Positions 2,177 through 55,975 of a stretch of DNA of 64,000 nucleotides are shown piece after piece. The notes below the pieces were generated by a model that made no database searches, was not told the origin of the DNA, and saw only the letters and a program-made list of their open reading frames with translations. Source of the stretch: Patescibacteria group bacterium (lineage in GTDB: Bacteria; Patescibacteriota; Patescibacteriia; UBA11705; DATKZF01). Both the position numbers and the translations under genes were made by a program. Each line of letters opens with the position of its first letter. Position 1 is the stretch's first letter. The DNA lies in contig JBMORT010000002.1 of NCBI GenBank assembly GCA_049319825.1, positions 204,072 to 268,071 of the forward strand. Direction: 5' to 3'.

Positions 2177-3907
2177 TTAGACTTCAATGACCACGGGCAG
2201 TACCATGGGACGTCGCTGCGTTTTTTTGAATAAAAATGCGCCAACTTCGTTTCTGAGCTTGTTTTTAATTTCGTTTGGATCGGCCGGACATTTGGCATTT
2301 TTATCCTTGACGATTTTTTTCACCAGACTTCTGGCGCTCTCCACCAATTCCTTGCTTTCCTTCATGTAAATGAATCCGCGAGAAATAATATCCGGACTGC
2401 CGACCAGCTCCCCGGTTCTCCGGCTGACCGTGGCGATTACCACGAACATGCCGTCTTCGGCCATTTGCATGCGGTCGCGCAATACAATATTGCTGATATC
2501 GCCGACGCCCAATCCGTCCACCATCACATACTCGGTCGGCACCCGTTCCTTGGTCAATTCGCCCATAATTTCCCGCCCTTTTTTATAGAATTCCATTACT
2601 TGGCCGTTATCGGCGACAAAGATGTTCGATTTGGGCATGCCCAGACTTTCCGCCAGTTCAGCGTTGGCTCGGAGCATGAAGTGATTGGCTTCGATCGGTA
2701 TGTAATATTTCGGCTTGAGCAATCGAATCAACATCTTCAGGTCTTCCTGCCGAGCGTGTCCGCCGGCATGGACATCCATCATTTTATAATGAAAAACTTT
2801 GGCCCCCTGCCTGGCGAGCGTGTCTTTTAAACTTTGAATGGTTCTTTCATTCCCGGGAATAACCGATGATGAGAAAATCACGGTGTCGCCTTTGGCAATG
2901 GACATAAAGCGGTGATCATTGTTGGCGATCCTCATTAACACCGCATTACTTTCGCCTTGCGCGCCGGTGCCGATCAGCACCTGTTTTTGCGGCGCCAGCC
3001 GTTGAAATTCTCCTTCTTCGACAATGGTGCCCGGCTTGATTTTTAAATATCCCAGCTGATGCGCGATTTCCACATTGGACTTCATGCTGCGTCCGTCAAG
3101 ATAAACTTTTTTTTCGAGTTTTTCGCAGATGGAGATGATCTGCTGAACTCGATTTAATAAAGAAGCGAAAGTGCCGACGATAATGCGGCCGGGAGCTTGT
3201 TCGAGTATTTGTTCCAAGTCTTGGCCGACAGTGCTTTCGGATATCTGGTAGCCGGGTTGCTCGGCGTTGGTGGAATCGGCCATTAGCGCTAAAACGCCGC
3301 GGGCGCCGAACTGGGCGATGCGGTTTAAATCCGCCGGCTTATCATTGATCGGGTTAAAATCAATTTTAAAATCTCCGGTGTGCACGATCATGCCGACCGG
3401 CGAAGTGATCACCACGCCGAAGCTATCGGGTATATTGTGGTTGACTCTGAAAAATTCCGCTTTCAATTTTCCCAGCGCGATGCTGTCTTTTTCCGGAATG
3501 ATTGTTTGAATGTTGAGTTTGGGCTGTTTGGATTCTTCGTGCCGCTTGGCGATGATGCCGGCCGTCAATTTGGTGGTGTAAATCGTCGGATTGCCCAGCT
3601 CCGGAATCAAATAAGACACGGCGCCGATGTGGTCGTAGTGGCCGTGAGTGATGATCACGCCTTTGATGTTTTTGATTTTGTTTTTTAGATAGGTGATGTC
3701 GGGAATGATAAAATCAATGCCCGGCATGTCTTCTTCTGGAAACTGCAATCCCATGTCGATAATGACTATGTCATTGCCGTATTCGACGACAGTCATGTTC
3801 CGGCCGACTTCTTCGAGTCCGCCAAGGGCCATCACGCGCAATTTATTGCCGCGCTGAGCCCAAGTTCTGGATAATGGCCGTCGCTGTCTGATTTTTCTTC
3901 TGTCCAT
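2177..3907 (-). CDS. rnj: ribonuclease J (metallo-beta-lactamase / beta-CASP RNase)
   Basis: ITHGHYDHIGA metallo-beta-lactamase motif, 576 aa; true start may be the internal MALGGLEEVG. Confidence 0.85.
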   Translation of the reverse strand: MDRRKIRQRRPLSRTWAQRGNKLRVMALGGLEEVGRNMTVVEYGNDIVIIDMGLQFPEEDMPGIDFIIPDITYLKNKIKNIKGVIITHGHYDHIGAVSYLIPELGNPTIYTTKLTAGIIAKRHEESKQPKLNIQTIIPEKDSIALGKLKAEFFRVNHNIPDSFGVVITSPVGMIVHTGDFKIDFNPINDKPADLNRIAQFGARGVLALMADSTNAEQPGYQISESTVGQDLEQILEQAPGRIIVGTFASLLNRVQQIISICEKLEKKVYLDGRSMKSNVEIAHQLGYLKIKPGTIVEEGEFQRLAPQKQVLIGTGAQGESNAVLMRIANNDHRFMSIAKGDTVIFSSSVIPGNERTIQSLKDTLARQGAKVFHYKMMDVHAGGHARQEDLKMLIRLLKPKYYIPIEANHFMLRANAELAESLGMPKSNIFVADNGQVMEFYKKGREIMGELTKERVPTEYVMVDGLGVGDISNIVLRDRMQMAEDGMFVVIATVSRRTGELVGSPDIISRGFIYMKESKELVESARSLVKKIVKDKNAKCPADPNEIKNKLRNEVGAFLFKKTQRRPMVLPVVIEV

Positions 3908-25133: not shown

Positions 25134-25160
25134 AAGAAAGTTTGATTTTTACAGTTGGTG

Positions 25161-26486
25161 ATGATATTATTGAATAAATCAATAAAAAATATGACTCAAA
25201 CATTTATAAAAGATTTTAAAAATTTTAAAGACAAAGAGGTTTCAATCAAGGGCTGGGTTTATAACTTGCGCTCATCGGGCTCGATCATGTTTTTGCAGGT
25301 TCGCGACGGCTCCGGATTCGTGCAGGCGGTTGTTTCCAAAAAAGAAGTTGACGCCAAAGTATGGGAAGAAGCGAAAAAGATTACCACGGAAAGTTCCGTT
25401 GAATTGTCAGGCAAAGTAACCGAACATCCCAAGCAAAAAGGCGTTTTTGAATTGCAGGTTCTCGGCGTGAAAGTGATTCAAGTCGCGGCCGAATATCCGA
25501 TCGGCAAAAAAGAGCACGGCCCGGAGTTTTTATTGGATAATCGTCACCTGTGGCTCCGCTCTCCCAAGCAGTGGGCGGTCTTGCGCGTTCGCAACACGAT
25601 TATCAACGCGACTTACGAATATTTGAATAAAGAAGGATTTATAAAAGTCGACGCGCCGATTTTGACGCCCGTGTCATGCGAAGACACCACCACTTTGTTT
25701 GAAACGGATTATTTTGATTTGGGAAAAGCTTATTTGTCGCAATCGGGACAGCTTTATATTGAGGCCGCGATATTTTCGGTCGGACGCTGCTTTGACTTTG
25801 GTCCGACTTTCAGGGCGGAAAAGTCAAAGACTCGTCGACACTTGACCGAGTTTTGGATGATGGACGCGGAAGCCGCTTTTGTCGAACACGAAGAGAATAT
25901 GAAAATTCAGGAAGGGCTGATTTGCTTTATCATTAAAAAAGTCTTGGAGCAAAATCAATATGAGCTTGGCGTTTTGGAAAGAGATGTCGAGGCATTGAAG
26001 AAAATTAAAGCGCCATTCGGCCGGATGACTCACGCGGAAGCCGTTAAAAAGCTCCAGTCGCTCGGGTCAGACATTAAAAAAGACGATGACCTCGGCGCTG
26101 ATGACGAGACTTTGCTGACCAAAGAAAGCGCGGTGCCGATTTTCGTGGAGAAGTGGCCGGCGAAAATCAAAGCGTTTTACATGAAGATCGATCCGGAAAA
26201 CAATGACGTGGTGCTGGGCTCAGACCTGATCGCGCCCGAAGGCGCCGGAGAAATTATCGGCGGGTCTCAGCGCGAAGATGATTATGATTCATTGCTAAAG
26301 AGAATGAAAGCGCAGAAAATGCCGATCGAATCATTTCAGTGGTATCTTGACTTAAGAAAATACGGCTCAGTGCCGCACAGCGGCTTCGGCTATGGACTCG
26401 AAAGACTTGTTCGCTGGATCTGCGGCCTGCAGCATATCAGGGAAACTATACCTTTTCCGAGGATGATTAATCGGTTGACGCCGTAG
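25161..26486 (+). CDS. asnS: asparaginyl-tRNA synthetase
   Basis: class II core FRAEKSKTRRHLTEFWMMDAEAAF (E. coli AsnRS-like), C-terminal GSVPHSGFGYGLERL..IPFPR; start may be 25191. Confidence 0.85.
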   Translation: MILLNKSIKNMTQTFIKDFKNFKDKEVSIKGWVYNLRSSGSIMFLQVRDGSGFVQAVVSKKEVDAKVWEEAKKITTESSVELSGKVTEHPKQKGVFELQVLGVKVIQVAAEYPIGKKEHGPEFLLDNRHLWLRSPKQWAVLRVRNTIINATYEYLNKEGFIKVDAPILTPVSCEDTTTLFETDYFDLGKAYLSQSGQLYIEAAIFSVGRCFDFGPTFRAEKSKTRRHLTEFWMMDAEAAFVEHEENMKIQEGLICFIIKKVLEQNQYELGVLERDVEALKKIKAPFGRMTHAEAVKKLQSLGSDIKKDDDLGADDETLLTKESAVPIFVEKWPAKIKAFYMKIDPENNDVVLGSDLIAPEGAGEIIGGSQREDDYDSLLKRMKAQKMPIESFQWYLDLRKYGSVPHSGFGYGLERLVRWICGLQHIRETIPFPRMINRLTP

Positions 26487-26506
26487 AGCGAAAACATCGA
26501 TGCCAA

Positions 26507-26552
26507 TATACCCTTCGACCATGCTCAGGGCAGGCGAATTCATACTAATGAT
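26507..26552 (+). repeat. conserved ~45-nt 3' element (copy after asnS)
   Basis: ACCCTTCGAC..CTCAGGGCAGGC..AATTC..AATGAT, homologous to 35506..35550 after aspS. Confidence 0.5.
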
Positions 26553-26616
26553 ACGAATATTTAATCCGAATGCTCCGAATATCCTATCCGAATACCACGA
26601 ATATCCCAAAAGTTTG

Positions 26617-26641
26617 ATCCATGATCCATGATCCATGATCC
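26617..26641 (+). repeat. GATCCAT heptamer tandem repeat (x4) abutting start codon
   Basis: gatccatgatccatgatccatgatccatgat directly 5' of ATG at 26642. Confidence 0.7.
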
Positions 26642-26851
26642 ATGATTTATATGCCCATAGAAAACAGAGACGACGTCGATCCCGGCATGGAAGTGCTGAT
26701 TGTCCTAAAAAAAGATCAGCCCACCGGAAAATTGACCAAAGGTATTGTCAAAGAAATTTTAACCAATTCCGCTTTTCATCCGCGGGGGATCAAAGTCAGG
26801 CTCGAAGACGGGCAGGTGGGCCGGGCGCAGGAAATATTGGAGAATAAATAA
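26642..26851 (+). CDS. YwbE-family small protein (DUF2196-like)
   Basis: PGM.V.IVLKKDQ.TGKLT.GIVK.ILTNS..HP.GIKVRL..GQVGR pattern matches B. subtilis YwbE. Confidence 0.65.
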   Translation: MIYMPIENRDDVDPGMEVLIVLKKDQPTGKLTKGIVKEILTNSAFHPRGIKVRLEDGQVGRAQEILENK

Positions 26852-26890: not shown

Positions 26891-27262
26891 ATGGAAAAAG
26901 AAGTGACAACCAATAAAATTTTGGAATTTTTGCAAGAGCATGGCGCGACCAAGGCTGATATTAAGATTTTGAAAGGGGAAATGGATGAAAAATTCGATGA
27001 GGTTAATTCAAGATTCGATGAGGTTAATTCAAGATTCGAGGGGGTTAATTCAAGATTGGATAGGATTGAGTCACAGATGGTCACTAAGGAATATTTAGAT
27101 GATAAGCTCGCTGATTTAAGGGGCGATCTTGTTATTCTGACGAGAAAAGAAGACGCGAAATTAATTGAATTGGTTAAAATATTGGGAAACAAACAAGTCC
27201 TTGCCGAAGACGAAGTAAAAAAAATTCTGGAAATGGAGCCTTTTCCTAAATTAAGCTTATAA
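26891..27262 (+). CDS. hypothetical coiled-coil protein containing in-frame 21-bp x3 tandem repeat (FDEVNSR)
   Basis: protein-like plus-strand ORF; minus-strand overlapping ORF judged shadow. Confidence 0.45.
   Translation: MEKEVTTNKILEFLQEHGATKADIKILKGEMDEKFDEVNSRFDEVNSRFEGVNSRLDRIESQMVTKEYLDDKLADLRGDLVILTRKEDAKLIELVKILGNKQVLAEDEVKKILEMEPFPKLSL
26983..27046 (+). repeat. 21-bp tandem repeat x3 inside CDS
   Basis: attcgatgaggttaattcaag x2 plus a variant third copy. Confidence 0.7.
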
Positions 27263-29750: not shown

Positions 29751-31571
29751 ATGCTTGATAAATTATTCAATTCAAAAACCCGCGTGGCTGTTTTAGGCTT
29801 ATTTTTCAATGATGAAGACAAAAAATCTTATATCCAGGAAATCATCAAATCAGCGAAGACAGACGCGGCCAATACTCATCGCGAATTGGATAAGCTTGAA
29901 AAGCTCGGCATTCTAAAGAGCAAAAAACAGGGCAACCAAAAATATTATTTTTTAAATAAAGACAATGCTTACTTCGAAGCTTTGAAAAGGTTGTTCGCGG
30001 TTTACCGCCGGAAAGACGATGGCTGGTACCTGCTCGAAGAAATTCCCAATGGCACTCCCACCTTTGTGGCTGATGTCTGCAATTCCAAGCTGTCAGTGGA
30101 ATGGAATGAGAAAAAAGGCTTCAAATATCCTCCCACGGATTTTCTGACCATCTACCGGAACGGCGTGGCCAGCATTTACTTTGTAAAATCTCAATTCGAT
30201 AAATACAGCCGCAGCATGCTGGACGGCTTTATCGCCGATCCCGCTTCTTTGCACAAAGTGAATGAAGAAATCATCAAGCAGTCGGACAGCTTGCGCGCTT
30301 ATTCACAAAAAGTATCTGCCATGAATCTGAAAATATTGGACGACAAAGAGCTGGGCAGTGTATTTTCTAATTTTTATAGAGAATATGAGCGCACTCATAT
30401 GTGGGCCTGGCCGCATACTGCGCCTGACTTTGGCGAAGCGTATTTATCCAAGTATTCTTTCGCGTATCTTAATGAGCGGCTGAAAAAAACCGGTAAAAAT
30501 TATTCGGTTGGCGAGATTTTCTCCAAGCTGACTTCGCCGACAGAGGAAAGCAATGCCCAAAAAGAATATCGCGACTTGCTTGCGATTTTGGATTATATTT
30601 TAAAGGAGAAATCATTGAGCCAATACTTTGCTGAAACCGAAACCCGCTTTATCCTGCGCGACCTGATGAAAAAAAATGAAAAGGCCTGGCAGATGATCGT
30701 CAATCATACTGATAAGTACGGCTGGCTGGGCTATGGCCTGATCGGCCCTGGCTGGAGCGAAGAGTACTTTATTGATATTTTGTGCAGCTTGATCAGGCAG
30801 CAAAGCGATCCGCAAAAGCTTTTGGCCAAAATCGAAGCTGAGAGGAAGGAATTGGCAAAGGAGCAGGAAAATATTTTCCAAGAGCTAAAAATTGACGACA
30901 GGAATCGAGAATTCTTTATCGGCGCCAAAGGCCTGGTCTTCACCAAGGGTTATCGAAAAGATTCATTATTCTACTTTTTCAGCGTGCTGGAAAATATTCT
31001 CAATGAATTGTGCAGAAGATACTATTTGTCAATGAACCAGGCGCGAATGCTCTTCCCGCATGAGATCGAAGATATATTAGGCGGCCAAAGCTTTGACTTC
31101 TCGGTTTTGAATGACAGGCAGAAATTATGCGCGCACTATTCAGCCGGACGCACCGATTATTGGAATGACACCATTGTAATCGGCGCTGAAGCGGAGAAAT
31201 TGATCAATAAGCTGCAATTCATTGAAGAAGACATTTCTGATATTAAAATTTTGAACGGCGAATGCGCCTCGCCCGGCAAATCCAGGGGCCGGGCCGTGAT
31301 TGTCAATGTCACGAAGGACATGCAGAAAATGAAAGACGGCGATATCTTGATTTCCATTGCCACCAATCCTGACCTGGTGCCGGCCATCAAGCGCGCCTCA
31401 GCCATTGTCACTGATGTGGGCGGGATCACCTGCCATGCGGCCATTATTTCCCGCGAGCTGGGAGTGCCCTGCGTCATTGGCACGAAATACTCGACCAAAG
31501 TGCTCAAAGACGGGGATATCATCGAAGTCGATGCCACGCACGGCAAAGTGACTATTATTAAAAGAGCGTAA
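29751..31571 (+). CDS. wHTH plus large middle domain plus PEP-utilizing-enzyme mobile domain protein (paralog 3)
   Basis: N-terminal ArsR-like wHTH, ~420-aa middle region, C-terminal [22 protein letters not shown]. Confidence 0.7.
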   Translation: MLDKLFNSKTRVAVLGLFFNDEDKKSYIQEIIKSAKTDAANTHRELDKLEKLGILKSKKQGNQKYYFLNKDNAYFEALKRLFAVYRRKDDGWYLLEEIPNGTPTFVADVCNSKLSVEWNEKKGFKYPPTDFLTIYRNGVASIYFVKSQFDKYSRSMLDGFIADPASLHKVNEEIIKQSDSLRAYSQKVSAMNLKILDDKELGSVFSNFYREYERTHMWAWPHTAPDFGEAYLSKYSFAYLNERLKKTGKNYSVGEIFSKLTSPTEESNAQKEYRDLLAILDYILKEKSLSQYFAETETRFILRDLMKKNEKAWQMIVNHTDKYGWLGYGLIGPGWSEEYFIDILCSLIRQQSDPQKLLAKIEAERKELAKEQENIFQELKIDDRNREFFIGAKGLVFTKGYRKDSLFYFFSVLENILNELCRRYYLSMNQARMLFPHEIEDILGGQSFDFSVLNDRQKLCAHYSAGRTDYWNDTIVIGAEAEKLINKLQFIEEDISDIKILNGECASPGKSRGRAVIVNVTKDMQKMKDGDILISIATNPDLVPAIKRASAIVTDVGGITCHAAIISRELGVPCVIGTKYSTKVLKDGDIIEVDATHGKVTIIKRA

Positions 31572-31575
31572 AAAT

Positions 31576-32514
31576 ATGTTCACAAAAATTTTCAAGGAAT
31601 TAAACTATAAAAGCGTCGACATCGCCGGCGGCAAAGGAGCTTCGCTGGGAGAAATGACTCGGGCCGGCATTCCGATTCCTCCCGGATACGTTGTTTTGGC
31701 CGGAGCTTTTGATAAATTTTTGGAAGAAACGGATTTAAATGTGGAAATAAAGGCTGTGATCGACGAGGTTAATTACGAAGACGTGAAATCAGTTGACGTA
31801 GCGTCGAGCAAAATCAGAGATTTAATCGCTGATGCGGATTTTCCGGCAGATATTGCCGGCGAAGTCCAAGAAGAATTCAAAAAATTGGGCGCTGAATACG
31901 TGGCGGTGCGAAGTTCAGCCACGGCTGAAGATTCTTCGATCGCTTCCTGGGCCGGCGAGCTGGAAAGTTATTTGAATGTTAAAGAAAAAGGCCTGCTTGA
32001 CGCAGTGAAAAAATGCTGGTCGTCTTTATTTACTCCGCGGGCGATTTTTTACCGCAAAGAAAAAGGATTGATCGACAGCAAGGTTTCAGTCGCGGTGGTG
32101 ATTCAAAAAATGGTCAATAGTGAAATTGCCGGCATTACCTTTACAGTTCATCCGGTGACCAAGGATCCGAATCAAATAATCATTGAAGCCGGATTCGGTC
32201 TGGGCGAGGCGATAGTTTCCGGCAGTATTACCCCCGATAGCTATGTGATTGAAAAAGATACCTGGAATATCATTGATATCAATGTGGCAGAGCAGGAGCG
32301 CCAGCTGGTTCGCGTGCCGGCCGGCGGCAACGTTTGGAAGGAGCTGCCTGCAACTAAGAAAGAAAAGCAAAAATTGACCGGCGAGCAAGTGGTTGAATTG
32401 GCACAATTATGCTATGACATTGAAAAGCACTATAATTTCCCGTGCGATATTGAGTGGGCGTTTGATGCCGGCAAGTTTTATATAACGCAGTCAAGGCCGA
32501 TAACGACTTTGTGA
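31576..32514 (+). CDS. stand-alone PEP synthase / pyruvate phosphate dikinase N-terminal ATP-grasp (PPDK_N) domain protein
   Basis: GGKGASLGEM, VRSSATAED, DIEWA..GKFYITQSRP motifs align with E. coli PpsA N-terminal 320 aa; no His or TIM-barrel domain in this ORF. Confidence 0.75.
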   Translation: MFTKIFKELNYKSVDIAGGKGASLGEMTRAGIPIPPGYVVLAGAFDKFLEETDLNVEIKAVIDEVNYEDVKSVDVASSKIRDLIADADFPADIAGEVQEEFKKLGAEYVAVRSSATAEDSSIASWAGELESYLNVKEKGLLDAVKKCWSSLFTPRAIFYRKEKGLIDSKVSVAVVIQKMVNSEIAGITFTVHPVTKDPNQIIIEAGFGLGEAIVSGSITPDSYVIEKDTWNIIDINVAEQERQLVRVPAGGNVWKELPATKKEKQKLTGEQVVELAQLCYDIEKHYNFPCDIEWAFDAGKFYITQSRPITTL

Positions 32515-32550
32515 AGGCAGTAGGCAAGAGGCAATAGGCAGTAGGTAAAT

Positions 32551-32572
32551 CGGCGCACGGCGCCGGTTTTTT
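32551..32572 (+). terminator. terminator CGGCGC-acg-GCGCCG + T6
   Basis: follows ATP-grasp gene and AGGCRAT heptamer array. Confidence 0.55.
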
Positions 32573-32574
32573 AA

Positions 32575-32603
32575 TTGACAGAATTCAGGTATTGATTTAA
32601 TAT
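32575..32603 (+). promoter_or_regulatory. sigma70-type promoter TTGACA-17-TAATAT
   Basis: consensus -35, good -10, 40 nt upstream of AGGAGG RBS. Confidence 0.5.
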
Positions 32604-32642
32604 GAAGTGTTGTTGTCGGCCGAGCAAAAAAGGAGGAGAGAT

Positions 32643-33278
32643 TTGGCAATCAACGGCTATAAAAAAATCGAAGCCCGGGTGGAAAGAATCAAAGAGTGGT
32701 TCAGGCTTCACGGCTTTGAAATTGAGGTTCCTTTTCCGAGGAGCGAAAACGGATTTCAAATCGAGATTCCTTTTCCGGGGATTAAAAGCCAATTTCAATC
32801 TTTCAATGCCCAATACGCGTTGAGACAAGAGAATGGCTGGGAGCTTTTTTACCGGCCGTCGAGCAGGGAAGTTTCGTATTTCGAATTTTTGGCGGAAGTT
32901 GGACAGAAATTTCATTGGACAACGAGAATCGGTGTTCGAAAAAGCATCAATTGGACATGGACGCAAAGCGGCTATTGGTTCTGGGCGCAAATTTGTCCTG
33001 CCGCGCCCGTTTTTGGCAAATGCGAAGACGTGGTGCCGGCGCGTTGCCAGGAAAATCAGCGGCCGCCGAGCATTGAAGAATATTTGCTGATGTATCATTT
33101 GCACCGATGCGATACTGGCCGCAAGCTGGATCACAATCCCGCGGTTTGGCTGACGACCAAGCTCCGCGGACACGCGCTGAGCGCGCTCGGCGATTGCGGC
33201 GGCATCAATGTCGGCATTGCCGACAATTTCACGCCCAACCCCGGCTGTGGCTTGCGCTTGGTGAAAGTGATCGGTTGA
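32643..33278 (+). CDS. hypothetical Trp-rich protein
   Basis: TTG start 6 nt after AGGAGG; internal repeat GF(E/Q)IE(V/I)PFP; minus-strand 260-aa ORF over same region rejected. Confidence 0.45.
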   Translation: MAINGYKKIEARVERIKEWFRLHGFEIEVPFPRSENGFQIEIPFPGIKSQFQSFNAQYALRQENGWELFYRPSSREVSYFEFLAEVGQKFHWTTRIGVRKSINWTWTQSGYWFWAQICPAAPVFGKCEDVVPARCQENQRPPSIEEYLLMYHLHRCDTGRKLDHNPAVWLTTKLRGHALSALGDCGGINVGIADNFTPNPGCGLRLVKVIG

Positions 33279-33445
33279 TTTTACCCTGTTTTCATAAAGC
33301 GGGGTTTTTTGTTTTGTCGAAGTGGCCGGACAAAAATTAATTGATATTCGCAAAGAAATAGTGTGATTTTTCGCGTGTTGTCGAATGTGGAAAACATTTT
33401 ATTCGATTTTTTGATACCCCTCGGGTTATGATGAAAATATAATTT

Positions 33446-33979
33446 ATGATTTATAAAGAATCAAAACAATATCGTTTACCCGGTTATAATTACGCCAATG
33501 ATGGATTTTATTTTGTGACGATTTGCGCCCAGAACATGCGAATGTTTTTTGGGAACGTTGTCAACGGCCAAATGATTTTGTCAAAAATCGGAAAAATCGC
33601 CAATCAATATTGGCTCGAAATTCCCAAACATTTTCCGCATGCGCGGTTGCATGAATACATTGTTATGCCGCACCATGTCCATGGAATTTTGGAGTTGCGA
33701 ACCCGTGTTGTTGTAGGAACGCGCCATGGCGCGTTCTTACAACAAAATTCCATGGGCATGCATCCATTGGTCAGGAATTCGTTGTCATCAATCCTCAACC
33801 ATTTCAAGGGGGCAGTGAAAAAATGGTGCAATCGAAACAATCATGGAAATTTTGCCTGGATGTCACGATTTCGCGATACAGTTATTTTGCATGAAAACGC
33901 ATTATACAACTTCCGCAAATACATCATTAACAACCCGTCAAATTGGGAATTGAAGAAAAACAATCCTGATTTGATGTAA
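33446..33979 (+). CDS. REP-associated tyrosine transposase (RAYT) / IS200-like HUH Y1 transposase
   Basis: YR.PG..YFVT N-terminus, HUH motif PHHVHGIL, C-terminal RFRD..I.....Y....YI.NNP, matching E. coli RayT pattern. Confidence 0.7.
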   Translation: MIYKESKQYRLPGYNYANDGFYFVTICAQNMRMFFGNVVNGQMILSKIGKIANQYWLEIPKHFPHARLHEYIVMPHHVHGILELRTRVVVGTRHGAFLQQNSMGMHPLVRNSLSSILNHFKGAVKKWCNRNNHGNFAWMSRFRDTVILHENALYNFRKYIINNPSNWELKKNNPDLM

Positions 33980-33995
33980 TATAATATCAAAATTC

Positions 33996-34019
33996 ATCGC
34001 GCTTGCCGCGATTTTTTTT
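33996..34019 (+). terminator. terminator ATCGCG-cttgc-CGCGAT + T8
   Basis: follows RAYT stop. Confidence 0.55.
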
Positions 34020-34132
34020 ATTTTTGAAGAATGAATCAGGGGTGCGTCAATATATTTGAAAAACCGGTGCCGATGCTGTATAATTATTGTAATAATTATT
34101 GATATTATTAATTATTTTTTATTTAAAAAAAT

Positions 34133-35479
34133 ATGGACAGAACGCTCAATTTGGAGGTAGTCAATAAAAAAGGAGAGGAAGTGATGATCGAAGGCTGGGT
34201 CGATGGCCGCAGAAACATGGGAAAAATCGTGTTTCTCGACATGCGCGACCGCACCGGAGTTCTGCAGGTCGTTTTGGTGCCCGGCGAGCTCGATAAAGAT
34301 TCCCAAAAACTGATTGATAACATCAGGCCGCAATTCGTATTGGCGATTGAAGGCATCGTTAACGAGCGGACAGGCAAAAACGCCAATCCGCAGATGGAGA
34401 CCGGCACAGTGGAAGTGCTGGCTAAAAAAATCACGGTTTTGGCCGAGGCGGAAACGCTGCCTTACGAGCTTGGTTCGGAAATGAAAATGGATACGTACCT
34501 CGATAACGCGCCGCTCAATTATCGAGATGAAAAAGCAAGAGCGATTTTTAAAGTGCAGGCCGCGTTGATACAGGGTTTTAGGAGCTTTTTAACGGCCGAA
34601 GGTTTTACCGAATTCCAGGCGCCCAAGCTGGTGGCCGAGGCCACTGAAGGCGGCGCCAATGTTTTCAAAATCGATTATTTCGGCAAAGCCGCTTATCTGG
34701 GCCAGAGTCCGCAATTTTACAAACAAATTATGACCGGCGTCTATGAGCGGGTTTTCACCTGCGGAAACGTTTATCGGGCGGAAGCGCATCACACATCACG
34801 GCATATTAATGAATATACCTCGCTTGATTTTGAAATGGGATTTATCAAAGATCATACGGATGTGATGGACATGACTCGCAGAGCTTTGACGGCAATGATG
34901 AATAACGTGGTTAAAAATTGCGATAAGCAAATCAAACTTCTTGATGCGGCCGTGCCCGAAGTGCCGGCGGAGATTCCGGCCTTGAAATTGGCCGAAGCGC
35001 AGAAAATTTTAAAGCATGAATTCGGCCAGGACTGCGAAGGCGAGCCGGATCTCGAGCCGCACCATGAAGAATTGATCTGCCAGTATGCCAAGCGGGAATT
35101 TAATTCTGATTTTATTTTCATCACTCATTATCCGGTCGAAAAAAGGCCGATGTACACCATGCCTGATGAAAAGGATAAGGGAAAGACCAAAAGCTTTGAC
35201 CTGCTTTTCCGCGGCTGCGAAATAGTGACCGGCGGTCAGCGTATCCATGACTATGAAATGCTGCTTGATAATATTAAAAAATTTAAAATGGATCCCCAGG
35301 ACTTTGAATTTTATTTAGAGGCGTTCAAATACGGCATGCCGCCCGAAGGCGGGATCGGCATGGGGCTGGAGCGGGTGACCCAAAAACTGCTTGGCCTGGA
35401 AAATATCAAGCAGGCCACGCTGTTTCCGCGCGATGATGTAAGGATAGATTTGCCTTTAAGTAAAGAAAATAACAAATAA
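34133..35479 (+). CDS. aspS: aspartyl-tRNA synthetase, archaeal/eukaryal type (likely non-discriminating)
   Basis: class II core YRAEAHHTSRHINEYTSLDFEM; C-terminal GMGLERV...LFPRD..RI.P. Confidence 0.8.
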   Translation: MDRTLNLEVVNKKGEEVMIEGWVDGRRNMGKIVFLDMRDRTGVLQVVLVPGELDKDSQKLIDNIRPQFVLAIEGIVNERTGKNANPQMETGTVEVLAKKITVLAEAETLPYELGSEMKMDTYLDNAPLNYRDEKARAIFKVQAALIQGFRSFLTAEGFTEFQAPKLVAEATEGGANVFKIDYFGKAAYLGQSPQFYKQIMTGVYERVFTCGNVYRAEAHHTSRHINEYTSLDFEMGFIKDHTDVMDMTRRALTAMMNNVVKNCDKQIKLLDAAVPEVPAEIPALKLAEAQKILKHEFGQDCEGEPDLEPHHEELICQYAKREFNSDFIFITHYPVEKRPMYTMPDEKDKGKTKSFDLLFRGCEIVTGGQRIHDYEMLLDNIKKFKMDPQDFEFYLEAFKYGMPPEGGIGMGLERVTQKLLGLENIKQATLFPRDDVRIDLPLSKENNK

Positions 35480-35505
35480 CAAAATCCAAATAACAAATAA
35501 ATCAC

Positions 35506-35550
35506 AATGACCCTTCGACTAATCTCAGGACAGGCCTAAATTCCAATGAT
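35506..35550 (+). repeat. conserved ~45-nt 3' element (copy after aspS)
   Basis: homologous to 26507..26552. Confidence 0.5.
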
Positions 35551-35629
35551 CCAAACAATTTTGAAAATTTGGACATTGGAGCTTTAATATTATTTGTGAT
35601 TTGTGATTTGACATTTGAGATTTATTGCA

Positions 35630-35956
35630 ATGCGTTTATCAAAGCTCCAAAAATACATTCTCATTCAATGCTATCAAGATAAAGGCGACAAAATGCACCG
35701 CGATCGCCTGATTGGATTTTATGGAAATATTCAGCAAGCGCCCAAATCTAAAGTTCAGACAAAGATAATCACCCGCAGCTTGGAAAGCCTGATTGATAAA
35801 GAATTAATGACCGGATTCGGCGTGCGCACTCCGCATAAGTGGTTCATAAAGGAAATCAGACTGACATCAAAAGGCAAAAAAGAAGCGAAGAATCTGCTCG
35901 GCGAGCAGATGAGTTTGCCATTAAAAACAAGAAAGGCGATAGGCGATAGGCGATAA
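35630..35956 (+). CDS. hypothetical basic protein; 3' end overlaps AGGCGAT x3 repeat
   Basis: 108-aa ORF upstream of scpA; no motif. Confidence 0.35.
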   Translation: MRLSKLQKYILIQCYQDKGDKMHRDRLIGFYGNIQQAPKSKVQTKIITRSLESLIDKELMTGFGVRTPHKWFIKEIRLTSKGKKEAKNLLGEQMSLPLKTRKAIGDRR

Positions 35957-35975
35957 GCGACACGCATTTCAAATT

Positions 35976-36665
35976 ATGTATAAAATTCAGACAGAAAAAT
36001 ATTCCGGACCGCTTGATCTGCTGTTAAAGCTGATCGAGGATAAGAAATTTGAGATCACTGAAATCTCTTTGGGGAAGGTGACCGATCAATATTTGGCGCG
36101 CATTGAAAAAATGGCGGATAAGCCGGCGGAAGAATTAGCTGATTTTTTGGTTATCGCGGCCAAGCTGCTGCTGCTGAAGTCAAAGGCGATTTTGCCGGTA
36201 ATGGAGGAAGATGAAGAGCCGGATGAACTGGAAAAGCAACTCCGGATTTATAAGGAATTTTATGAGGCCAGCAAAATCATGAACAAAATACTATTATCGG
36301 AAAATTTTTCTTTCGGCCGGGAGCGCCCCCCAATGCCGCTGGAAGTGGAATTCGCGCCGCCCAAGGATCTGGCCGCCACGGATTTAATGAATACTTTTAT
36401 TAGAATATTAAAAAAACTTGATCCGCTCATTCATTTGCCGAAAGTATCCATAAAAAAAGCGATCAGTTTGCAGGCGACCATCATGGATTTACAAAATTCA
36501 ATAAAACGTTTTAGAAAAATAGATTTTTCGAAAATTACTCAGAAAGCCAAATCAAAAACTGAGCTGATAGTTCATTTTCTCGCCTTGCTTGAATTGATGA
36601 AAAGACAAGACGTGGAAGCGGAGCAGAGCGGGGTTTTCGGAAATATTTTAGTTAAAAAAATATAG
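35976..36665 (+). CDS. scpA: segregation and condensation protein A
   Basis: GPLDLLL.LI......I..I.L..V..QY plus ADFLVIAAKLLLLKS. Confidence 0.8.
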   Translation: MYKIQTEKYSGPLDLLLKLIEDKKFEITEISLGKVTDQYLARIEKMADKPAEELADFLVIAAKLLLLKSKAILPVMEEDEEPDELEKQLRIYKEFYEASKIMNKILLSENFSFGRERPPMPLEVEFAPPKDLAATDLMNTFIRILKKLDPLIHLPKVSIKKAISLQATIMDLQNSIKRFRKIDFSKITQKAKSKTELIVHFLALLELMKRQDVEAEQSGVFGNILVKKI

Positions 36666-36781
36666 AGATTACAAATTTATCACAAAGTGATCCCTTCGGG
36701 ACAAATTGAATACAAATATTACAAATGGTTACAAATTGTTGCGAGTCCGTATAATCTCGTAACATCTCGTAACAATAATTT

Positions 36782-37342
36782 ATGTTAAAATCACAACTCG
36801 AAAGTATTTTATTCGCATCCACCAAGCCTGTCTCAGTTAAGGACCTGCAGAGATTTTTTAAAAAATCTAATTTAAAAATTGATAAAACCGAAATTAGTGT
36901 CGCGCTCGGCGCATTGATGCTGGAATATAATGTTGATCATAAGGGCGTGCACATTATTAATGTCGAGGATAAATATCAAATGGTCACCAACCCCAGCAAT
37001 AAAGATTTGGTTGAAAAAATGATAAAACTCGATCGTACCGGCGAGCTAACGCAGCCGTCCTTGGAAACCTTGACGATCATCGCGTATCGGGGCCCGATTT
37101 CCAAGATTGAACTGGAGCAGATCAGAGGCGTGAATTGCAGCTTGATCATAAGGAATTTGATGATCCGCGGATTAATTGATACGACCATAAACGATGTTAA
37201 TGGACAGGAAATGTATAATATTACCACCGAGTTTTTGCAGTTTTTGGGGATGAACACCGTCGATGAGTTGCCTGATTACGCCAAGCTGCACCAGATAGAA
37301 AGCTTGGATGAGTTTTTGGGGAAAGGCAACCCTGCCGAATAA
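36782..37342 (+). CDS. scpB: segregation and condensation protein B
   Basis: LESILFAS..PVSV..L N-terminus, ~186 aa. Confidence 0.75.
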   Translation: MLKSQLESILFASTKPVSVKDLQRFFKKSNLKIDKTEISVALGALMLEYNVDHKGVHIINVEDKYQMVTNPSNKDLVEKMIKLDRTGELTQPSLETLTIIAYRGPISKIELEQIRGVNCSLIIRNLMIRGLIDTTINDVNGQEMYNITTEFLQFLGMNTVDELPDYAKLHQIESLDEFLGKGNPAE

Positions 37343-37344
37343 TT

Positions 37345-38232
37345 ATGATTGAATTTGTCATATCGCTAATATTACTGTTAAATCCCATAGCCGCGCCGGC
37401 CGCGCCGAATATTTTTAATTTTTCAGTTCAGGAATCCGGACCGCAAAAGATTCAAAACGGCAATATGGGAGTGAAGCTGACCGCCTCAAATTTCATTGCC
37501 AAAGACGTTGAGTCCGGGGCAATCTTATATTCCTCGGGTGAAAATGAGCAGACTCCTTTGGCGAGCTTGACCAAGCTGATGACCGCGCTGGTTTTTTCGG
37601 ATACCAATCCCGAATGGCAATCCCAGATCGAACTGACCCAAAAAGATGAAACTGACGGCGCTTATCCTCATGTATATCGCGGAGAGAAAGTAACCATTGA
37701 AAATCTTTTCAATTCCATGCTGATTTCCTCCGATAACAATTCAGCGGAAGCATTGGTCAGATCGACCGGGTTATCTTCAGAAAAATTTGTTGAAAGGATG
37801 AATATGCTGGCGGCCAATAATGATCTGAAACAAACTCATTTCGTCGATCCCACGGGATTATCGGCGGAAAATGTATCCAGCGCGGCTGACGTGGCGCGGT
37901 TACTGGAGTTGGCGGTATTAAACGATGATATTCGAAAAGCGTTATCACATAAAACTTATAGTTTTGATATATTAAACAGTAATAAAATCAGAAAAATTTA
38001 TACCACCAATCAATTACTGGATAGCTTTTTAAACTCAGAAAAAAGCGGCTACGCCATAATTGGCGGTAAGACCGGGTTTTTGCCGGAAGCGGGCGGTTGT
38101 TTGGCGGTCATGATCGAAAAAGACGGACGGCGGATCATTTCAGTCGTTTTGGGCAGCAGCAATTACGATACTCGTTTTCAGGATACGAAAGCATTGGTTG
38201 ACTGGGTGTTTTTAAATTATCAGTGGGAATGA
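37345..38232 (+). CDS. D-alanyl-D-alanine carboxypeptidase (peptidase S11, low-MW PBP)
   Basis: SxxK (LASLTKLM), SxN (SSDNNS), KTG (GGKTGF) motifs. Confidence 0.75.
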   Translation: MIEFVISLILLLNPIAAPAAPNIFNFSVQESGPQKIQNGNMGVKLTASNFIAKDVESGAILYSSGENEQTPLASLTKLMTALVFSDTNPEWQSQIELTQKDETDGAYPHVYRGEKVTIENLFNSMLISSDNNSAEALVRSTGLSSEKFVERMNMLAANNDLKQTHFVDPTGLSAENVSSAADVARLLELAVLNDDIRKALSHKTYSFDILNSNKIRKIYTTNQLLDSFLNSEKSGYAIIGGKTGFLPEAGGCLAVMIEKDGRRIISVVLGSSNYDTRFQDTKALVDWVFLNYQWE

Positions 38233-38333
38233 TCCGAATTTTCGATTCGAAATATCCCAAATGACCCGAATTGGCAGGACGAAGATGTAATATTCGTGGC
38301 ATTCGGATACATTCGGGGATTCGGATTATATAT

Positions 38334-38834
38334 ATGATTCAATCAATCATCGATTTCTTCAGTCGGCTGGATCCGCGATGGGCCACTTTTTGGCTGTCAA
38401 TGATTCCGGTGACAGAGCTTCGGGCCGCCATCCCCATTGCGCTGAGCGTCTATAAGCTTTCGGTGGCGCAAACAATAATATTTGCCGTGCTCGGTGATAT
38501 TTTGCCTGCAATTTTTATATTGTTTGGATTTGAGAAAGCCAGCAGTTATTTGGCGGGGAAGTCAAATACTTATAAAAAATTTCAGGATTGGCTTTTCGAG
38601 CGGACAAGAAAGAAATTTGAAAAAAAATATCATAAATATGGATTGATCGGTCTGGCGCTTTTCGTGGCGATTCCGCTGCCGGGAACAGGCTCATGGACCG
38701 GATCGATCGCCGCTTTTCTTTTCGGTCTGGAAAAAAAGAGAGCATTGATTTTTATTTTGCTGGGTGTTATTATGGCTTCAATTTTAGTAACCTTGCTGAG
38801 TTTGGGTGTGATTCACATAAATCACGCAATATGA
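38334..38834 (+). CDS. small membrane protein (COG2426-like putative small multidrug export family)
   Basis: ATG at 38334 preceded by ATTCGG repeat array; 4 TM. Confidence 0.45.
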   Translation: MIQSIIDFFSRLDPRWATFWLSMIPVTELRAAIPIALSVYKLSVAQTIIFAVLGDILPAIFILFGFEKASSYLAGKSNTYKKFQDWLFERTRKKFEKKYHKYGLIGLALFVAIPLPGTGSWTGSIAAFLFGLEKKRALIFILLGVIMASILVTLLSLGVIHINHAI

Positions 38835-39271
38835 AAATAACGATTTGCGGTTCAATCGCGTTTTTCGATGAAATGCAGAAGATTCATGATAATTTGCTGC
38901 AGTTGGGGCATGAAGTGAAGATTCCTCCGACAGAAATCGCCGATAATCAAGGCAAGCTGATTTCAGTCAAACGTTATTATGAAATGAGAAAAGAGGAAAA
39001 TGACGATGTCAGTTGGATTTGGGAAAAAAAGAAAAAAGCGATGCGCGCTCATTTTGAAAAAGTCGAGTGGGCCGATGCCATTTTGGTATTAAATTACAAT
39101 AAGAACGGCATTGAAAATTATATCGGTGCCAATACTTTCCTGGAAATGGGATTGGCCTTCCACTTGGGAAAGACGATATATTTATTGAATCCGATTCCCG
39201 ATATTTCATATAAAGAAGAATTGCTGGCGATGTTTCCATGTGTAATTAATGGTGATTTAACTCAATTATGA
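38831..39271 (+). CDS. nucleoside 2-deoxyribosyltransferase-like protein
   Basis: ATGA overlap with previous gene; ITICGS...LEMGLAFHLGKTIYLL pattern. Confidence 0.4.
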   Translation: MKITICGSIAFFDEMQKIHDNLLQLGHEVKIPPTEIADNQGKLISVKRYYEMRKEENDDVSWIWEKKKKAMRAHFEKVEWADAILVLNYNKNGIENYIGANTFLEMGLAFHLGKTIYLLNPIPDISYKEELLAMFPCVINGDLTQL

Positions 39272-40395
39272 AAATAGGCGTCGACTGCCGAAAAATATTC
39301 AACCCGATTACCAACGAAGGCGCTGGCATTGAGCGTTATGTGTTTAATTTGGTGAAAAATTTAATTGAAATTGATGAAAACAATCAGTATGTCTTATTCG
39401 TGCCGAAAAGATATCCTCAAGAGGCATTAGACATATTAATAAAGCGCCAAGCCAATGTAAAATTAATACCAATAAGCGACGGTAAGATTCCGTTTTTTTC
39501 CAATCATTTACTTTTCGCGCTCGAGCTTCGAAGAGCATCGCTTGATTTGGCGATCTTTCCCGCCAATACCATTCCAATCGGATATAATCGTCGTTCTTTT
39601 TTGTTTATTCATGATTTGATCATTTACAAACATCCTGAATGGTTTCCGGCCGGGCAATTTTTTTCCAGAAAAATTGCGGTTCCGCTGAGTATAAAAAAAT
39701 CAGATAAAATATTGGCGATTTCTCAGGCGGTAAAAACCGATTTGGAACAATTATTCGGAGTTCAGAGCAATAAAATCAAGATCATCTATCCGTCCATCGA
39801 TATTTATACCGAGGTCGACGAAGAAACGGAAAATAAGATTATCGCCAAATATAATTTGAAAAAGCGATATATTTTTTTCGTCGGCACTATAGAACCGAGG
39901 AAAAATTTGGAAAATTTAATTAGGGCATTTACAAAAATTTCATCTGCCATGGCCGATGTCGATTTGTACATCGCCGGCAATATCGGTTGGCATTATGAGC
40001 GCATTTTTCAGGCGGCCAAAACCTCCGGCGGCAAATCGAATATTCGATTTTTGGGAGCTGTCTCGAACCGCGAAAAATTGGTTTTAATGAAAGAGGCGAT
40101 GATTTTCGCTTTCATTTCATGGGACGAGGGTTTTGGCATGCCGGTATTGGAAGCGATGAAAATCGGACTGCCGGTGATCACCTCGAGCTGCGGCGGATTG
40201 GGTGAACTTGTTTATGATCAGCGTCAAATCGTTCGGCCGGGCGATGTTAATGATATTGCCGCAAAATTAAAAAATCTCCTGGAAGATCAGGAAATTCGTA
40301 AGAATATCATTGAAAAACAAAGAAAATGGGCGGAAAATTTCAGCTGGCGGATCTCCGTTCAAAAACTGTTAAAAATTATAGAAGGCGAACAATAA
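39268..40395 (+). CDS. glycosyltransferase family 4 (GT-B, group 1)
   Basis: FVGTIEPRKN..L and EGFG..E..A.G.PV motifs. Confidence 0.8.
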   Translation: MKIGVDCRKIFNPITNEGAGIERYVFNLVKNLIEIDENNQYVLFVPKRYPQEALDILIKRQANVKLIPISDGKIPFFSNHLLFALELRRASLDLAIFPANTIPIGYNRRSFLFIHDLIIYKHPEWFPAGQFFSRKIAVPLSIKKSDKILAISQAVKTDLEQLFGVQSNKIKIIYPSIDIYTEVDEETENKIIAKYNLKKRYIFFVGTIEPRKNLENLIRAFTKISSAMADVDLYIAGNIGWHYERIFQAAKTSGGKSNIRFLGAVSNREKLVLMKEAMIFAFISWDEGFGMPVLEAMKIGLPVITSSCGGLGELVYDQRQIVRPGDVNDIAAKLKNLLEDQEIRKNIIEKQRKWAENFSWRISVQKLLKIIEGEQ

Positions 40396-40833
40396 AATCA
40401 ATATTGCCAGTTGCATCATCAGCCCGGTAGACAGGCTGATTTTTTTTGTTTTGAATATATCATGGAAAAATTCGTGCGCCTGATAAAATCTTCTGAACAA
40501 TTTGGGATAAACCTCGTGAACTCCCACCAATAAGTCGGGCAGCAGCGATCCGGCTAAGGCCATGAAGATAGCTAGGTAACTGATGATATTATTATGAAAC
40601 TTTATCAGCCAAAATAAATTGAATGCCAGGCATAGGCCAATATCAATTAAAATCAGCTGTACGATTTGTTTCGGCTTGGTTTTGGCGCGATATTCCTCTA
40701 TCAAATTTTGATCGCCATGGGGAATCATGTCCATGATAAAATGAGCGATAAAGGCAATGATGAACGCCAGCCACCAATTGTTAGTTTTTTGTCCGATTAA
40801 AACGCCGGTCGCGGCGTGAACGGTTAATAGCAT
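40369..40833 (-). CDS. membrane-bound metal-dependent hydrolase-like protein (YdjM/DUF457-like)
   Basis: His-rich TM helices; ATG at 40833 with GATCCATGATCCATG directly upstream. Confidence 0.4.
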   Translation of the reverse strand: MLLTVHAATGVLIGQKTNNWWLAFIIAFIAHFIMDMIPHGDQNLIEEYRAKTKPKQIVQLILIDIGLCLAFNLFWLIKFHNNIISYLAIFMALAGSLLPDLLVGVHEVYPKLFRRFYQAHEFFHDIFKTKKISLSTGLMMQLAILILLFAFYNF

Positions 40834-40911
40834 ATAGCATGGATCATGGATCAATTCAATGATTTTTTATTTATTTCATGTCGAATGCCCCATGTTCCAT
40901 CAGTCATTATA

Positions 40912-41859
40912 TCACAAGTCAACATTAAGTATAGATACCTCCGGTGGATTAAATAAACGCGCGCGCGGGCCGGTTTCTCCCACTCCCGGAGTTATAAACA
41001 ATTGAGTTTGATCGAATCGAAACAATCCGGTGTCAAATTTTCTTCCCAGCTCATCCGGCAGCGGAGATAACGGGCCTATCAGCGGCAGCCTGATTTGGCC
41101 GGCATGCGTGTGACCGCTGAGCATAATATCGACCTGGTTATTCGCTTCCAGTATGTAATCAGGGTTGTGACAGAGCATCAGACTGGGAATTGATTCATTT
41201 ATCCCGGACAAAGCTTTTTCCAAATCAGCCTCGCCGGTCCAGATTTCCTTGATGCCGATGATGTTGAATTGCTGACTATTGATTGTTAATTGTTGATTGT
41301 CGTTTTCCAGCAGGGCAAGGTTATACTTTCGCAGCATTTGTCGGAGCACGTATGTTTTATCTTGTTGCTGCGAGCTTTTGAATTCAGAAAGGTGATAGTC
41401 ATGGTTGCCGCTGATGACAACCAGCGGAAATTTCCCACTGAGTTTTAATATCGGTTCGAGATATTTGGCATTTTCTCCGGCGCCATAAATATAGTCGCCG
41501 AGTAAAACTATCAGATCAGGATTTTGTTGATCTATGGTGTCAGCGATTTTTTGGCTGTAATTATATTTTTTAAATGGCCCAAAATGAGGATCGGAAACGG
41601 CCGCTATCTTAATGCGATCCGGCGATTCATTTTTTTTGATATCAACTGAATATTCTTTAACCGTGACCAGCTTGGGTTCGATGAAGCTGCCATAAAATAC
41701 TACGACAAAACCGACAATCAATATAATTCCGATTATCAATTTCCAAGCGTGTCTGCTGCCGTGTTTAAAACAAAAAAATGCCTTTAACAATTTATAGGCA
41801 AATAAGGCGCTGAATATAAGGAATGAATCGGTTATTATTTCAAAAGCGTAGAAAATCAT
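40912..41859 (-). CDS. calcineurin-like metallophosphoesterase, membrane anchored
   Basis: DPHFG, GDYIYG, GNHDY, GHTHAGQ motifs. Confidence 0.75.
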   Translation of the reverse strand: MIFYAFEIITDSFLIFSALFAYKLLKAFFCFKHGSRHAWKLIIGIILIVGFVVVFYGSFIEPKLVTVKEYSVDIKKNESPDRIKIAAVSDPHFGPFKKYNYSQKIADTIDQQNPDLIVLLGDYIYGAGENAKYLEPILKLSGKFPLVVISGNHDYHLSEFKSSQQQDKTYVLRQMLRKYNLALLENDNQQLTINSQQFNIIGIKEIWTGEADLEKALSGINESIPSLMLCHNPDYILEANNQVDIMLSGHTHAGQIRLPLIGPLSPLPDELGRKFDTGLFRFDQTQLFITPGVGETGPRARLFNPPEVSILNVDL

Positions 41860-41911
41860 CGTTATAAAAATTAAAGGTAACGTTTATGTATTAGAACGAT
41901 TTTAAATATTT

Positions 41912-41987
41912 TGGTAGCGGGGAGGGGACTCGAACCCCTGACCTCCAGGTTATGGGCCTGGCGAGCTGCCAACTGCTCTACCCCGCG
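41912..41987 (-). tRNA. tRNA-Met (CAU), initiator-type
   Basis: cloverleaf with anticodon loop CCCAUAA, A11:U24, mismatched 1:72 (C x U), encoded CCA. Confidence 0.8.
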
Positions 41988-51912: not shown

Positions 51913-52029
51913 ATGATCTTAATACTATTATAACAGATTTAGGCGAATGTCAAATACGTTTCAGTTGTAATAAAAAGGCAATAGGCAATAGGCAGTAGGC
52001 AGTAGACGACTGACATATGCGCCGAACTA

Positions 52030-52058
52030 TTGACAACCTTTGAAAAGTTTGCTACAAT
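52030..52058 (+). promoter_or_regulatory. sigma70 promoter TTGACA-17-TACAAT
   Basis: in 880-bp non-coding region. Confidence 0.5.
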
Positions 52059-52064
52059 GTAATT

Positions 52065-52134
52065 GTTGATGCGTTGGGAGTATCCCAATGACGCAGACAC
52101 TCCTCGGAAGTTTTCCTACGAGGAGTGTTTTGTT
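52065..52134 (+). ncRNA. candidate ~70-nt small RNA (two hairpins plus U-tail)
   Basis: hairpin TTGGGA-gta-TCCCAA then CACTCCTCG-12nt-CGAGGAGTG followed by TTTTGTT. Confidence 0.35.
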
Positions 52135-55907: not shown

Positions 55908-55975
55908 TTTTGGGAATTGGAAATGGGGAATTGGAAATGGGGTTAATCCTAGTTTCCAATTTTCATTTTTTAGTT

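Follow-up and report, generated by a model that had tools for sequence, protein, structure and literature searches.

GATCCAT heptamer arrays near start codons in a Patescibacteria genome: one family among many intergenic heptamer repeats, and a possible leader element

Among long simple sequence repeats (LSSRs), those with 7-nt units are the commonest in many bacterial genomes, an excess for which the footprint of the replicative polymerase has been offered as a tentative explanation (Mrazek 2007, as summarized in PMC4679880 and PMC4692102). In marine Beggiatoaceae, TAACTGA repeats occur in sets of two to six copies, tens to hundreds of sets per genome, mostly in forward orientation and one to a few nucleotides before start codons that lack a Shine-Dalgarno (SD) sequence (MacGregor 2015, PMC4679880). 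Binding of a post-transcriptional factor, for example S1, Csp, or CsrA, has been proposed for them (PMC4679880). The GGGAATC repeats of Xanthomonas are intergenic, mostly comprise four units, and are sometimes inverted (Rehm et al. 2015, PMC4692102). The (ATCTTTC)n repeat of hmw1A and hmw2A in Haemophilus influenzae is a phase-variable tract of 11 to 63 units in the 5' UTR (PMC12721329). Heptads are also recognized by transcription factors, since ToxR binds TTTTGAT heptads at ctxAB and SARPs bind heptameric direct repeats. No description of such heptamer arrays in Patescibacteria (CPR) was found in the literature searched.

The window analyzed here is a 64-kb stretch of a Patescibacteria genome. 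Tandem Repeats Finder (TRF) identifies (TGATCCA)x4.6 with 100% matches at 26615-26646 on the forward (+) strand, so the GATCCAT tandem repeat reported at 26617-26641 by the first-pass annotation is real and lies inside this array. With up to two mismatches, the 14-mer GATCCATGATCCAT has seven matches in the window against 0.7 expected, a number that none of 100 shuffles reached. Four of these matches form the main array, one is at 40839-40852 (-), and two are at 52308-52328, indicating that the repeat and its two echoes are non-random. As in heptanucleotide LSSRs, the main array is made of uninterrupted head-to-tail 7-nt copies beyond chance (4.6, all perfect), and it belongs to a period-7 excess that is biased to non-coding DNA.

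The gene downstream is ywbE (DUF2196/TIGR03833; 26651-26851, +; 66 aa plus stop), as supported by Pfam (1.1e-30), NCBIfam, an identical NCBI protein (P0001), and an N-terminal alignment. Each unit of the array contains a TGA, and ATG triplets are present at 26621, 26628, 26635, and 26642. The repeat had been described as ending at the ywbE ATG. The last ATG of the array is in frame with ywbE and would add the residues MIY, but the start common to the homologues and the NCBI protein (66 aa, MPIENRDD...) is ATG 26651, 4 nt past the array end. No SD motif is present upstream of this start. YwbE is a small conserved cytoplasmic-type protein rather than a surface or host-interaction protein. A 70-aa arginine-rich ORF (26635-26847, +) begins at the third ATG of the array and overlaps all of ywbE in another frame; this ORF is created by the repeat and is probably spurious. 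Just 3' of ywbE is a gene for a 123-aa coiled-coil-like protein, in which a 21-bp coding tandem repeat (x3.3, 91% matches, 26992-27061, +) encodes FDEVNSR repeats.

The asnS-ywbE spacer (26487-26650, +) contains a dispersed motif (CCCTTCGAC-N4-CTCAGG-N-CAGGC, 26511-26535), a run of CGAAT boxes (26547-26606), and then the GATCCAT array. It is about 155 nt long in the window and only 3 nt long in the relatives L176 and L177, so it is an expansion built from repeats. Neither a promoter-like nor a terminator-like site was detected in this spacer, and co-transcription of asnS and ywbE is therefore plausible. No Rfam family matches the spacer, even at E = 1. Compared with shuffled sequences, its RNA is less structured, both over the full spacer (z = +1.5) and around the start (z = +0.9).

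Both of the other spacer components recur elsewhere. The dispersed motif is found again at 35511-35535 and at about 3250-3290 of the related locus L161, adjoins heptamer arrays in at least two spacers of the window and in this relative, and may be a small mobile or REP-like element. Boxes of the form (A/C)CGAAT(A/T), spaced every 10 to 13 nt or so, are present at 26547-26606, 38233-38330, and 52140-52260, and those at 38233-38330 form opposed sets (CCGAAT ... ATTCGG). They could represent a second intergenic repeat class or a putative protein-binding array. Two class-II aaRS genes of the D/K/N type (tRNA-synt_2 plus OB anticodon domain; 25155-26486 and 34133-35479) are located within 9 kb of sequence, and both precede repeat-rich spacers.

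The second GATCCAT locus is an exact two-copy array (40839-40852, -) that is sense to its gene and ends 5 nt before an ATG at 40833, a start confirmed by P0121. The gene (40369-40833, -) codes for a 154-aa hypothetical membrane-like protein. The first-pass annotation had correctly placed a two-copy array beside this ATG, but its YdjM-like label for the gene finds no backing, as the protein has no Pfam or NCBIfam match. The degenerate copy that had been noticed near 52304-52328 was located at 52308-52328 (+) and reads GATCCAT CATCCAT GTTCCAT, with one to two mismatches to GATCCATGATCCAT. It sits in a long repeat-rich non-coding stretch and adjoins no supported gene start. GATC and CATG are present in every unit, as had been pointed out, and neither is unusual in the window, where their observed/expected ratios are 1.10 and 1.33. 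A relevance of these sites to restriction-modification or Dam was rejected, as they are neither avoided nor unusually enriched.

Among the window and the related loci compared, GATCCAT arrays proper are confined to the window and to one other locus, L162, which is a JGI contig encoding a YwbE 88% identical to that of the window. Related forms in the same YwbE clade are also found in L173, and a variant unit is found in L163. The ywbE leader of L162 reads GATCCAT GATTCAT GTTCCAT GTTTCAT GAT, followed by AAAAAAT and the ywbE ATG. A second L162 array, GATCCATGATCCATGAAAAAAAT, is followed by the ATG of the next gene, which codes for a TcaA-like Zn-ribbon protein. The orthologous spacer is TTGATCCATGCTCTTTGATCCATGTTTCATGATTTATTAAAT in L173-L175 and TTACATGTTACATGATAAAAAT in L163, in each case followed by the ATG. 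Both units of L163 are altered alike, which is a signature of slippage-driven homogenization, and the number of units before the Zn-ribbon gene differs between species (2 versus about 4). Including the two window loci, six of the seven arrays of this family with known context are sense-oriented and located 4 to 11 nt before an ATG without an SD sequence. The enrichment near start codons that the first-pass annotation had proposed to look for is thus found for the GATCCAT unit family. Its arrays share the arrangement of the TAACTGA repeats, with two to six forward copies a few nucleotides from an SD-less start.

Contigs from viral collections with (GATCCAT)4-13 were judged unrelated. In the IMG/VR contigs L165, L167, L169, and L170 (53% GC), a perfect (GATCCAT)4 followed by an A-run lies inside 100-122-bp GATC-rich tandem units, within a 370-bp intergenic region resembling an iteron-containing origin. 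Judging from sample numbers, some of these contigs, at least, seem to derive from the JGI sample series that also yielded L162 and L163.

The GATCCAT tract is one of many intergenic heptamer arrays in this genome and lineage and is not a special locus. TRF reports eight to nine further period-7 arrays in the window, with about four to five copies of quite different units, and our own census of the window yielded 17 period-7 hits compared to 0 to 1 at periods 5, 6, and 8 to 12. All main arrays are intergenic or overlap a stop codon, and the unit families include GATCCAT (three loci), AGGCRRT (three loci), and TTGGRAA (two loci). On the + strand, an AGGCAGT-type array (x4.4, 32515-32545) directly follows the stop codon of a PPDK_N gene and is itself followed by a hairpin. 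An AAATAAC array (x4.9, 35467-35500) overlaps the stop codon of a class-II aaRS gene, ATTTGTG (x4.6, 35592-35623) is intergenic, and AGGCGAT (x3.9, 35934-35960) is located 15 nt upstream of the scpA ATG. Further along the same strand, AGGCAAT (x4.3, 51976-52005) is upstream of relA/spoT, a minus-strand gene, and of its TTGACA/TATAAT-like promoter, ATTGGAA (x4.7, 52642-52674) adjoins a bidirectional terminator hairpin downstream of topA, and TTCATGC (GCATGAA on the gene strand; x3.9, 52763-52789) is 5 nt past the topA stop codon. A mixed heptamer/14-mer array of TTGGGAA/TTGGAAA (55910-55942, +) separates convergent genes and is closely followed, on its downstream side, by a partial inverted copy.

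Several of these arrays are associated with gene ends in other ways. Repeat sequence at 35467-35479 and 35934-35956 provides the last codons and the stop of the aaRS gene and of an 87-aa ORF upstream of scpA, and the 3' ends of these two genes are thus partly repeat-derived. Inverted pairs of heptamer arrays are present in the window (55910-55975) and in the related loci L152 (1472-1564), L119 (16391-16450), and L031 (7586-7664). They would form long hairpins that fill the whole intergenic spacer, in L152 with 0 nt left over at both the stop-codon and the start-codon end, and may be terminator-like structures made of heptamer repeats. Between relA/spoT and topA, a TTGACA-N17-TACAAT promoter-like site is followed by two hairpins, the second of which is a terminator with a T-run (ACACTCCTCG...CGAGGAGTGTTTTGTT). 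This region (52031-52137, +) is a candidate small non-coding RNA, with no Rfam match even at E = 1.

By AsnRS comparison, the window belongs to the Patescibacteria (CPR), close to the Uhr-, Magasanik-, Komeili-, and Falkowbacteria-type lineages, and the closest AsnRS sequences are 74% to 80% identical. We analyzed 160 related loci (2.2 Mb) collected via AsnRS. The census covers arrays with 3.5 or more copies and an identity of 85% or higher, with composition-preserving shuffles for comparison and genes taken from naive longest-ORF calls. The 2.2 Mb contain 104 period-7 arrays, compared to 41, 22, and 4 at periods 6, 8, and 9, respectively, and the shuffles contain none at period 7. Perfect heptamer arrays of at least three copies number 16 in 2.1 Mb. 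Array lengths are 25 to 41 bp, with two longer exceptions. Most arrays (88%) lie outside ORF interiors, while non-coding DNA makes up only about 15% of the sequence, a density ratio of about 40-fold. Within co-directional spacers, 18 arrays are no more than 10 nt from a stop and 13 no more than 10 nt from a start, against 9.9 expected in each case; among spacers offering 60 or more free nt, 8 arrays are at the stop edge and 7 at the start edge, against 2.8 expected. A strong period-7 signal is present in the spacer downstream of asnS in only 6 of 153 relatives, and this spacer was dismissed as a hot spot.

Units are shared (up to one mismatch, any rotation or strand) by 32% of same-genome array pairs and by 6.7% of pairs between genomes; identical units account for 14% and 0.5%, respectively. 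Each genome therefore has its own favored heptamers. Across genomes, the units have no tetramer in common, and a shared core such as CATG, GATC, or ATGA was rejected. An insulator providing stops in all three frames was likewise rejected, as stop-containing units are equally frequent on the sense and antisense strands.

These observations bear on the possibility that the tract is neutral slippage debris, an irrelevant microsatellite that survives where it is harmless and whose proximity to a start merely reflects short spacers. Unrelated units with no core, the even distribution of stop codons between strands, and the occurrence of arrays at both gene ends are all consistent with this explanation, as is the heptamer excess that is widespread in bacteria and, in the quoted parts of the literature, ascribed to polymerase slippage. 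Heptamer arrays abut stops as often as starts and have units without a common core, suggesting that most of them may be neutral. The arrays are also absent from the orthologous spacers of the syntenic relative L179 and from most ywbE relatives (L161, L163, L171, L172, L173, and L176/L177), indicating that the element is dispensable and evolutionarily labile. However, random seeds arising independently would not be expected to give each genome its own unit families, and the sense orientation and start proximity of six of the seven GATCCAT-family arrays speak against neutral debris. For the GATCCAT arrays we consider it a possible but somewhat doubtful explanation.

The ywbE arrays of the window and L162 also argue against neutrality. 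Their alignment is gap-free, the unit and its copy number agree, and substitutions are found at 4 of 32 positions (12.5%), while the two ywbE genes differ at 45% of their third codon positions and at 15 of their 23 four-fold sites, a silent-site divergence of 45% to 65% (binomial P for the array = 9e-5 or lower). The 40 to 125 nt upstream of the two arrays cannot be aligned. A purely random origin by local slippage fails to explain this match. The comparison is compatible with a retained element under purifying selection or with parallel gain of the same cassette. L163 and L173 are nearer to L162 than the window is, share its synteny, and have no array before ywbE, so the two arrays may be parallel gains, which would weaken the argument for purifying selection.

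The first-pass annotation had named the tract as a candidate for phase variation or an operator array. Under phase variation, slipped-strand mispairing would alter the number of units at high frequency and switch or tune ywbE expression. A perfectly homogeneous tract does imply fairly recent slippage or homogenization, heptamer tracts in the 5' UTR drive phase variation at hmw in H. influenzae, and the arrays before the Zn-ribbon gene vary between species. However, the 4.6 units at ywbE fall well below the natural minimum of 11 at hmw. The gain or loss of one unit would preserve the junction CATGATTTAT-ATG, the in-frame upstream ATG, and the reading frame, and frame switching is not possible because the units are upstream of the ywbE start. 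No -35/-10 pair brackets the tract. YwbE is not of the surface or host-interaction type, and it is improbable that CPR bacteria would use all of their dozens of such arrays as switches.

Copy number is fixed as far as it could be compared. L162 has the same number of units upstream of ywbE, and contig pairs at 98.9% to 99.97% identity have no indels in the other arrays that they cover. An independent Logan assembly of SRR32167788 matches window positions 30369-41969 at 100% identity without gaps, five other arrays included. The organism was found on one NCBI contig (a MAG contig of 384,691 bp) and one Logan contig only, and AsnRS-based scans of genome and metagenome collections yielded no contigs of the same species (best identities 74% to 80%). 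Phase variation is very improbable. What stands of the original proposal is a repeat of the slipped-strand type whose family adjoins start codons and for which a regulatory role is possible; most of the tests applied speak against a switch.

Alternatively, the heptads may act at the DNA level, either by binding a transcription factor or by providing, in the terminal CATGAT, a weak -10 element of a promoter for leaderless mRNA. Such a site would define a small regulon of ywbE, the 154-aa protein, and the Zn-ribbon protein. The GATCCAT unit is found ahead of three or more gene families in three or more genomes, operators made of heptads are known from other bacteria, and the 3'-terminal CATGAT is located 4 to 9 nt before the ATG, where many TATAAT boxes of this genome lie. 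With naive gene calls, an SD-like motif is present at 8 of the 67 genes in the window, and a near-consensus TATAAT ends 3 to 14 nt before the start of 16 of the 67, suggesting widespread leaderless or very short-leader mRNAs. However, a promoter search of the window found no -35/-10 pair around the GATCCAT arrays. A sigma-70 promoter inside the ywbE array was also rejected: there was no hit, and by hand the spacing between the TTGATC at the 5' edge of the array and the CATGAT boxes is 14 or 21 nt and in no case near 17. With a 7-bp period, neighboring sites would not face the same side of the helix, the arrays could not be linked to any candidate regulator, and ywbE may simply be co-transcribed with asnS, given the lack of a terminator. 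The many arrays with other units in the genome and lineage further weaken the reading as a single specific operator. We consider both the DNA-level site and the regulon that it would define unlikely.

We tentatively favor a different explanation, with confidence somewhat short of even, in which the GATCCAT subfamily is a start-proximal leader element made and maintained by slippage. Heptamer arrays would arise and be homogenized by replication slippage, following Mrazek (2007) as quoted elsewhere, and short arrays (3.5 to 6 units, 25 to 41 bp) persist in the small non-coding fraction, mostly directly beside stops and starts. At ywbE, the asnS-ywbE junction has been stretched from 3 nt to about 155 nt. 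GATCCAT arrays would form the immediate 5' leader, unstructured and rich in AUG, which would stand in for an SD sequence or a leaderless promoter and be read at the RNA level by the ribosome or a single-strand-binding protein. Position, orientation, and one conserved instance are the basis of this proposed function. Pairing of UGAUCC with GGAUCA of the 16S 3' tail as an extended anti-SD interaction was considered and is unlikely, because GATC is not generally present upstream of gene starts in the window; the loci collected contained no 16S gene. It is also disfavored by the GATCC units of degenerate arrays, which lie more than 20 nt from the ATG.

A more specific version of the leader hypothesis is that GATCCAT arrays are a clade-specific, SD-independent leader that, as RNA in single-stranded form, would be recognized either by the ribosome or by a small protein of OB/SH3-like type, perhaps YwbE. 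YwbE is a possible reader in that its fold is predicted to be a small SH3/Tudor/Sm-like barrel and its own gene has the best-conserved array. This version is quite unlikely. If true, it would give leaderless-prone CPR bacteria a way to start or control the translation of internal cistrons, and the favored heptamer families of each genome would mark distinct post-transcriptional regulons. A functional leader of any kind could help explain the translation of internal cistrons in CPR, where most genes lack an SD sequence. If the arrays are instead neutral, they show that the heptamer bias of bacterial microsatellites, itself unexplained, is also present in ultra-small CPR genomes. They also create spurious in-frame ATGs and stop codons at gene ends, which is a caution for annotation.

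Heptamer arrays are a known kind of bacterial repeat that is, as far as we could find, apparently new in Patescibacteria. Like prokaryotic heptamer LSSRs, as far as these are described in the sources quoted here, the arrays consist of head-to-tail units beyond chance, with 7 nt dominant among periods of 5 to 11 nt, and are intergenic and numerous per genome. Unlike them, they are short (up to about eight units) and fall into several unit families within a genome. Their genome-specific intergenic families of about four units, with some inverted pairs, resemble Xanthomonas GGGAATC, Nostoc GGGGA(T/C)T, and the cyanobacterial STRR heptamers, and families of the Xanthomonas/Nostoc type also vary between related species (PMC4692102), as do those described here. 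The Xanthomonas and Nostoc units are G-rich and quadruplex-capable, however, whereas GATCCAT is not, and its RNA is predicted to be unstructured.

Similarity to regulatory heptamers is more limited. At hmw, as at ywbE, a heptamer repeat is positioned between upstream control sequences and a start codon. The hmw tract, however, pairs with a G-rich partner in a long hairpin and differs among isolates and among passages, while the ywbE array has 4.6 units, no partner, and no detected variation. The ToxR/H-NS heptads (TTTTGAT) of Vibrio cholerae ctxAB are likewise tandem heptads upstream of a gene, and their number is strain-variable. They are located upstream of the -35 box and have a known regulator, while the ywbE array ends 4 nt from the start and no regulator has been tied to it.

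By analogy, the TAACTGA repeats of Beggiatoaceae are the closest functional counterpart of the GATCCAT arrays. Both are start-proximal, forward sets at SD-less starts, with no pattern in the functions of the downstream genes. They differ in unit and phylum, GATCCAT is present at only three loci in 64 kb, and, unlike in Beggiatoaceae, this genome has other heptamer families that abut stop codons. If functional, the GATCCAT arrays would be a second independent case, after TAACTGA, of heptamers replacing ribosome-binding sites.
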